A stretch of DNA of 64,000 nt from assembly GCA_965229495.1 (NCBI GenBank), contig OZ245880.1, forward strand, positions 518,603-582,602, in the 5' to 3' direction. Source of the stretch: Gammaproteobacteria bacterium (lineage in GTDB: Bacteria > Pseudomonadota > Gammaproteobacteria > CBDBNL01 > G965229495). Shown here piece after piece: positions 3,728-3,900 of this stretch (position 1 is the stretch's first letter; the number at the start of each line of letters is the position of its first letter). The translations under genes were made by a program, and so were the position numbers. The notes under the pieces are model-generated. The model had not been told where the DNA came from and searched no databases. It was given only the letters and a program-made list of their open reading frames with translations.

Positions 3728-3792
3728 GAGTGGTTTAAGGCGGCAAAAGAACCACCTCATTTTACTTAGTTGCTGCCTAGCAACCGCCTATC

Positions 3793-3900
3793 GGTCTAAC
3801 TGGTATGCACGTGGTAACTCGCGTCATGGGCGTCCTCCTCGCCGCCCTCGCCGTGCAATTCATTTTCGATGGTATCGGTCAGAGCGGCTTGTTATAAGAC
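3793..3900 (+). pseudogene. 3'-terminal fragment (last ~35 codons) of a marC-like gene, preceded by an in-frame stop
   Basis: Encodes [34 protein letters not shown], identical in amino acids to the C-terminus of the intact marC at 44622-45248 on the opposite strand. It is about 93% identical at nucleotide level. The frame is closed by TAG at 3778. Confidence 0.6.

Follow-up and report, generated by a model that had tools for sequence, protein, structure and literature searches.

A marC 3′-end fragment beside luxR-paa genes as a probable in-place remnant at a synteny breakpoint in a marine gammaproteobacterium

The repeat pair and its genomic surroundings

The DNA analysed here, called the window, is a 64,000-nt stretch of contig OZ245880.1 (assembly GCA_965229495.1). 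A repeat search of the whole window found one long repeat only. It is an inverted repeat of 127 nt, 92% identical, whose two arms, R1 on the plus strand (3791-3917) and R2 on the minus strand (44602-44728), lie 40,684 nt apart. R2 is the 3′ end of an intact marC gene. R1 lies between lgt and a luxR gene. In the preliminary description, the copies had been placed 40.7 kb apart in inverted orientation, and this is correct. The features at the two places and between them are as follows, where L003 to L007 are five contigs of relatives and L008 is a further relative.

2945-3727, minus strand: lgt, 260 aa, start at 3727; left neighbour of the relic, part of the icd-greA-MAPEG-lgt block
3770-3792: junction J1, with the match to the sucD-lgt spacer of L008 reaching 3792 and that to marC starting at 3791
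3791-3917, plus strand: R1, marC 3′ relic, collinear with the marC tail of L003-L007 and running on into luxR
3918-4664, minus strand: LuxR-family regulator with a GerE domain, the native convergent neighbour of marC
4702-11416, minus strand: phenylacetate-type genes (paaK ligase, thioesterase, enoyl-CoA hydratase, PaaZ-like, PaaH-like), collinear with relatives
11628-38290: core chromosome between the copies, with purM, polA, dxs, and others, from domain scans
38476-44346: mobile/accessory islet beside R2, with hipB, hipA, an IS3-family element, a transposase remnant, an HTH protein, and an orphan
44366-44543: MITE-2, a short dispersed repeat, with a partial copy at 62147-62194 and copies in relatives
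44544-44601: junction J2, the 58 unique nt that adjoin R2 on its downstream side, with no homology to the ancestral locus beyond 44602
44602-44728, minus strand: R2, the 127-nt counterpart of R1 at the end of the intact marC, from alignment
44622-45248, minus strand: intact marC, 208 aa, Pfam MarC (PF01914), with its native upstream flank
45402-47200, minus strand: low-GC variable cassette upstream of marC, whose ORFs (45242-47191) are a 75-aa ORF, a PIN_12 protein, and orphans of 211 and 117 aa
47200-53149, plus strand: amidase and branched-chain-type ABC transporter genes, which form the native flank upstream of marC and share about 92% identity with L003-L007

R1 consists of the last 34 codons of marC (3793-3894), the stop codon TAA (3895-3897), and the 20-nt spacer between marC and luxR (3898-3917). 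It had been described as 35 codons and a stop codon at 3793-3900; the marC tail is real, but there are 34 sense codons and the stop codon is at 3895-3897, not at 3898-3900. R1 has no start codon, and an in-frame TAG lies at 3778-3780. The homology had been thought to end one codon from this TAG, but it starts at 3791, so that the TAG is four codons upstream. The marC tail of a relative matched 3791-3907 in a BLAST search with an E-value of 1e-44, and the similarity of R1 to marC is far above the chance level.

The translations of R1 and R2 are identical in 34 of 34 residues, while the DNA sequences differ at 10 of the 127 sites. Three of these mismatches lie in the 20-nt spacer and seven in the coding part, at repeat positions 8, 29, 53, 65, 83, 86, and 95. 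All seven coding mismatches are synonymous and fall on the third codon position, in agreement with the seven synonymous-only differences reported before. At the downstream end, the homology reaches 3917, the last base ahead of the luxR stop codon. Homology of the flanks would have indicated a simple segmental duplication. It was found that 20 nt of the 3′ flank are shared and nothing further, and the pair is not a larger segmental duplication in its present state.

The intact MarC protein gave a full-length match to PF01914 (residues 6-203, E=1.5e-51, 175 bits against a curated cut-off of 23.9). The gap between amidase and marC, where the window has the low-GC cassette, is occupied by two different small ORFs in L003-L007, and it is therefore a variable slot. 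On the left side of R1 lie icd, greA, a MAPEG gene, a hicB-like ORF, and lgt. The lgt start at 3727 gives the 260-aa form present in the protein collection, and the lgt start of a relative aligns there; the spacer between lgt and R1 is 63 nt. The HicB-like ORF (68 aa, 2712-2918, minus strand) lies between MAPEG and lgt. It is absent there in L008, in which lgt and MAPEG overlap, and in the window it alters the C-terminus of Lgt (260 vs 266 aa). On the right side, the PaaH-like name of the 9275-11416 ORF was taken from the gene calls of relatives, not from the domain scan.

The core chromosome between the copies carries purM, purN/purF, purD, apaG, ksgA, a rluD-like gene, mutL, miaA, polA, and dxs, together with genes for ABC proteins, an aminotransferase, an M42 peptidase, and an efflux protein of the outer membrane. 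A 704-aa ORF in this region (18018-20132, plus strand) has a PurN-type formyltransferase domain at residues 4-176 and, in addition, domains of the PurF type for glutamine amidotransferase and phosphoribosyltransferase. A PurN-PurF fusion would be unusual, since PurF uses an N-terminal cysteine, and the ORF may instead be two genes in one frame. Two orphan ORFs of 201 and 137 aa (27819-28841, plus strand) form a pocket of 36% GC between an aminotransferase gene and a redoxin gene, amid core DNA. In the islet beside R2, the IS3-family element is composed of orfB (40782-41642) and orfA (41663-41956). The 388-aa orphan of the islet (P0241, 43180-44346, minus strand) is low in GC (about 36%) and has no match in Pfam, NCBIfam, or PADLOC. 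It has 55 homologs of near-constant length and 36-61% identity, some of them in Thiomicrorhabdus, Aeromonas salmonicida, and Vibrio splendidus, and it is a member of a conserved orphan family with no assigned function. The window has no tRNA genes.

Gene order in relatives and the two junctions

Is the position of R1 new or ancestral? The closest MarC proteins (88-98% identical) are all from one ENA metagenome assembly, which holds many related strains with differing coverages. In L003-L007, the locus is unbroken: an ABC transporter, an amidase, the two small ORFs, and marC are convergent with luxR, paaK, and the thioesterase, hydratase, PaaZ, and PaaH genes. By BLAST, the window falls on this locus in the blocks 53149 to 47200, 45402 to 44602, and 3792 to about 11400, and the latter two overlap by 126 nt on the relative. 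In L003, nucleotides 10453-10578 map both to 3792-3917, running on into luxR, and to 44727-44602, running on into the marC/amidase block. Thus, one ancestral copy corresponds to both R1 and R2. The native flanks have been split between them; the downstream flank (luxR-paa) is with R1, while the upstream flank (the amidase side) is with the intact marC, 40.7 kb off and inverted. At the empty site of the relatives, marC is followed directly by luxR.

On the other side of the break, the gene order in L008 is sucC-sucD-lgt-MAPEG-greA-icd. Its homology to the window extends from position 1 up to 3792 and ends exactly there, 65 nt upstream of lgt. The ancestral upstream neighbour of the icd-greA-MAPEG-lgt block is sucCD. 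In the window, the break in the marC-luxR-paa locus falls at the end of marC. The last 127 nt remained with luxR-paa, and their left side is now joined to a point 63 nt upstream of lgt. The alignments give good support to the placement of the relic at a synteny breakpoint, and the path of the rearrangement is proposed below in conditional terms.

The preliminary description had suggested a footprint of past rearrangement and a comparison with related genomes for the ancestral gene positions. The comparison upholds the suggestion, as marC-luxR-paa is contiguous in the relatives and split here, and lgt belongs beside sucCD. What did not survive is the reading of the fragment as foreign to its site between lgt and luxR. 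R1 is at the native marC position relative to luxR-paa, with five relatives collinear from 3792 to about 11.4 kb, and it is no import placed there. Outside these contigs, a profile search of representative genomes gave only distant marC genes (74% identity or less) without useful synteny, and a degenerate DNA pattern of the marC tail had 0 matches in species-representative genomes and JGI metagenomes.

The string at the lgt-relic junction J1 is GCAACCGCCTATCGGTCT. A short microhomology, AGCAAC...TA(T/C)C, is shared there by the lgt-side sequence (...TAGCAACCGCCTATC) and marC (...CAGCAACTAC(T/C)C). In its sequence, J1 resembles a product of illegitimate joining at microhomology more than the core site of a recombinase. 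The lgt-relic junction was not found in any other genome, and thus the age of the truncation can be judged from the substitution pattern only.

At J2, the end of MITE-2 was considered as the junction and rejected, because the 58 unique nt lie between. The sucD-proximal part of the sucD-lgt spacer is neither beside R2 nor elsewhere in the window. Its local alignment to the DNA downstream of R2 scored 15, against a mean of 16.4 for shuffled sequences. A simple two-break inversion inside the window was rejected on this lack of similarity. No partner of the second junction could be found in the window, where the sucD-proximal spacer that a simple inversion would place beside R2 is absent, and the path is therefore a proposal.

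Synonymous divergence, marC paralogs, and a proposed history

Random substitutions in this stretch of the marC tail would be synonymous in only 26-31% of cases. Under unconstrained mutation, the probability that seven of seven coding changes between R1 and R2 are synonymous is 7e-5 to 3e-4. Four variants, at repeat positions 8, 29, 53, and 83, occur in R1 only among the marC-1 copies. They are all synonymous, and the probability of four of four is 0.004-0.009. In contrast, a 223-nt paaK tail fragment in L003, 91.5% identical to the paaK of the same contig, has 10 synonymous differences versus 9 differences in nonsynonymous codons, and a premature stop. The earlier statement that the synonymous-only pattern is unlike neutral decay is borne out by these probabilities and by this contrast. 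Since the substitutions in R1 are synonymous only, unlike those in the decaying paaK fragment, they suggest that most of the divergence of R1 took place within a working, selected marC. The marC tail is among the most conserved parts of the protein and is nearly unchanged even in 74%-identical homologs, which is why functional alleles differ only synonymously there. The truncation of R1 is probably recent; alternatively, its differences were imported from functional copies. The lack of any nonsynonymous change, indel, or stop in R1 means either that it is very young or that the pattern is an effect of the small sample.

The paaK fragment itself lies at L003 1287-1617, where the 223-nt tail is fused to a 120-nt hydratase piece beside an IS3 fragment, about 10 kb from the intact genes. 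It is another rearrangement scar in the same neighbourhood.

R1 and R2 are 8% apart, and the orthologs of the window and L003 are 5-8% apart. Compared with L003, R2 has 4 differences at coding sites and R1 has 9, while in the spacer R1 has 1 and R2 has 3. At G65, C86, and C95, and over the first 10 bases of the spacer, R1 agrees with alleles of a Rieske-linked paralog. The MAPEG-linked paralog of L011/L012, which is more distant, also has the four variants unique to R1, with sites in between at which R1 does not follow it, a pattern that could be patchy conversion or homoplasy. Gene conversion from the Rieske- or MAPEG-linked paralog as the sole source of the R1 differences is not supported, since shared and non-shared sites interleave. 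The 127 nt have too few sites to tell a native from a foreign copy or to settle the mosaic. Of the proposal that the fragment derives from an orthologous marC of another lineage, the coding constraint during divergence can be kept, whereas 127 nt do not decide whether R1 or R2 would be the copy of another lineage. Against L005, the stretch from luxR to paaK diverges at a fairly even rate of about 5 per 100 nt, a profile that is uninformative for a recombination tract.

The marC homologs of the clade occur in at least five contexts. The marC-1 copies, about 92% identical in DNA sequence, sit in different contexts, with the homology confined to the gene. P0297 is a second full-length MarC, of the Rieske-marC-ABC-EamA paralog found in five relatives (L094-L098), and it appears to be encoded on the window's own contig, giving this genome a second intact marC paralog. 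Its recorded contig has 2,682,840 bp, and for all window proteins looked up the records, from NCBI and ENA, give a contig of the same length. In L003-L007, the paa-linked marC has lost its ATG (CACG-CTAGAA... and a 1-nt deletion; e.g., L003 9932-9960), and the gene is called from Met24 with 185 aa. P0303, a cluster member of the paa-linked marC, has lost its stop codon. Because of these losses, the paa-linked marC appears to be dispensable and decaying in relatives. The locus boundaries of the clade frequently have IS elements, two dispersed repeats, and gene fragments. Given the paralog redundancy and the frequent boundary scars, a broken paa-linked marC would be tolerable and is unsurprising.

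I consider it likely that 3791-3917 is an in-place remnant of a marC gene that was natively tail-to-tail with luxR-paa and was left by a multi-step rearrangement. Such a history would need two events or more. Over most of the time in which they diverged, the two 127-nt copies would have been parts of full-length, selected marC genes. By the likeliest route, an inverted copy of the amidase-marC segment would have arisen, self-made or from a related strain, and two full marC genes would then have coexisted. The luxR-side marC would later, and recently, have been truncated by an illegitimate, microhomology-mediated join to the region upstream of lgt. Other intact marC copies in the genome may have made its loss tolerable. 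The relic would have no function of its own, and it probably does not serve site-specific recombination.

A gene remnant at a rearrangement breakpoint is an already known class of feature. Like the pseudogene relic of a redundant paralog, R1 is truncated, has no start codon, and lies at the position of the full gene in relatives. An intact marC is present in the genome at 44622-45248, with P0297 as another by inference, and the paa-linked marC decays in relatives too. The difference is that the marC relic has no nonsynonymous change, indel, or stop. The fragment marks the synteny breakpoint precisely. It records that the marC-luxR-paa neighbourhood was broken and reshuffled, with marC function kept, in an uncultured marine gammaproteobacterial clade. 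The synonymous-only pattern may be used as a clock, which reads either a young truncation or an exchange of alleles from functional copies. Beyond its value for the breakpoint, annotation, and the clock, the fragment would have little functional consequence.

Alternative explanations of the duplicated tail

A single step might also have produced the pair, although I regard this as rather unlikely. In an inversion or translocation with staggered nicks 127 nt apart, filling in would create two copies that are identical at birth. They would differ later by allele replacement or gene conversion, and functional marC donors, in other strains or as a paralog in the same genome, would import synonymous differences only. 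An ancestrally single sequence is indeed duplicated and inverted here, each copy with one native flank, and a duplicated, inverted breakpoint sequence with split flanks is the signature of staggered-break inversions (Ranz et al. 2007, PMC1885836). As in that system, a single-copy coding piece is found inverted at two places, and the lgt-side junction is without a repetitive element. The microhomology at J1 and the bases that R1 shares with the Rieske-linked alleles (G65, C86, C95, and the first 10 of the spacer) would fit as well. However, the window lacks the reciprocal junction that this model expects, since the sucD-side spacer does not come after R2, and extra events would be needed anyway. 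The new flanks should have been adjacent in the ancestor, while the left flank of R1 is the lgt-proximal spacer and the sucD-proximal part is missing from the window. The staggered-break model would give an identical pair with one member decaying, whereas the copies here, in a bacterium, are 8% apart, as far as orthologs between lineages. Random decay after an identical origin does not describe the 10 differences in 127 sites, all synonymous in the coding part and four of them in R1 only. Moreover, the four unique variants of R1 are absent from the marC-1 alleles seen, and the match to the distant paralog is interleaved, not tract-like.

It is improbable that the marC tail is more than a scar, be it a selected 30-residue micro-gene or a marC 3′ boundary that is reused in the clade as a fragile or target site. 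The reading as a reused boundary comes from the varied contexts of the marC-1 copies and from a TIR-bearing dispersed element that lies 2 nt past the stop codons of two marC paralogs.

This TIR element is about 145 nt long (TGAGACC..TGCAAAAA / TTTTTGCAAAGGTCTCA). The two paralogs are the serS-linked and the MAPEG-linked marC (TATAR GG at the stop codon), and the element is in opposite orientations at them. In L013, its end is 29 nt ahead of the marC start. Copies are found at 22571-22713 in the window and in L003 (11349-11488 and 12805-12946), L009 (10630-10754), L011 (10630-10779), L013 (6786-6931), and L008 (371-523).

An assembly artefact, that is, a chimera of co-occurring strains in which the lgt-relic or the R2-islet join exists in no cell, is very improbable. 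The closest relatives come from one metagenome of many related strains, and the window's contig may be metagenome-derived too. Nevertheless, chimeras from strain switching arise within shared sequence and preserve gene order, whereas at J1 two unique, unrelated sequences meet at a few bases of microhomology. Since R1 and R2 differ at 10 of 127 sites, the pair is no fold-back artefact of a read, and comparable scars are present in independent contigs.

The preliminary description had also proposed the marC 3′ end as a target of integration or recombination. R1 and R2 would then be attL/attR-like remains of an integrative element that targeted this end, supplied a replacement tail, and was later inverted. 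This is extremely improbable. The prophage e14 leaves a duplicated tail at icd/icdC, with the protein kept and synonymous-only differences (Hill et al. 1989, as described in PMC13626634), and the marC tail is duplicated in the same manner, with the frame and the protein kept (34/34 residues) and 7/7 differences synonymous. Low-GC orphan DNA and IS remnants are located directly downstream of R2. At icd of Escherichia coli, e14 and phage 21 also leave a displaced 3′ tail that differs mainly synonymously from the working tail of an intact gene, but there, direct repeats bound a 15-kb prophage that excises site-specifically (PMC13626634). In contrast, the marC copies are inverted and 40.7 kb apart, with about 27 kb of the intervening DNA being core genes. 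No integrase or site-specific recombinase was found by Pfam in 46 ORFs spanning 409-49842, which include every long ORF between and beside both copies, nor by NCBIfam and PADLOC in the orphans. The sole transposition gene found among the screened ORFs was the IS3 DDE transposase gene (40782-41956). The 388-aa orphan has no phage or plasmid match, and on its left R1 adjoins, through microhomology, the promoter region of lgt and not the end of an element. Codon 174, the 5′ edge of R1, is no breakpoint in any other marC locus examined. Thus, the direct repeats, the recombinase gene within an element, and the mobile DNA absent from the empty sites of relatives, which belong to a duplicated attachment site, were not found here. 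The reading as the attachment site of a prophage or an island was rejected on the inverted repeats, the core gene content, and the lack of an integrase among the screened ORFs, and it is largely refuted. For annotation, the locus is a warning that a duplicated gene tail with synonymous-only differences can mimic a prophage attachment site.

That selection keeps the relic, either as the gene of a membrane peptide of 30 residues (the last MarC helix, with ATG at 3805 and TAA at 3897) or as a luxR 3′ element, is hardly credible: the change is synonymous only and an in-frame ATG exists at 3805, but the sequence ahead of this ATG has nothing like a Shine-Dalgarno sequence, the two promoter-like sites on the plus strand (3601-3658) are both inside lgt with none between the lgt start and the relic, a scan of the luxR strand found no terminator-like site, and one of the four R1-specific synonymous changes, at 3798, lies upstream of the ATG. 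The relic has no Rfam match and its fold is no better than that of shuffled controls (z=0.22), and an RNA element or special structure was rejected on the same results.

Two further elements were observed near marC genes. MITE-2, which in the window lies 58 nt downstream of the intact marC, has copies in L001, L008, L011, L012, and L094-L098, and a 64-nt piece of it is located 33 nt upstream of the MAPEG-linked marC in L011/L012. In L095 (6050-8766) and L097 (7918-8928), IS110-family transposase genes have been inserted just ahead of the Rieske-linked marC, where they separate the VanA_C gene from the Rieske gene.
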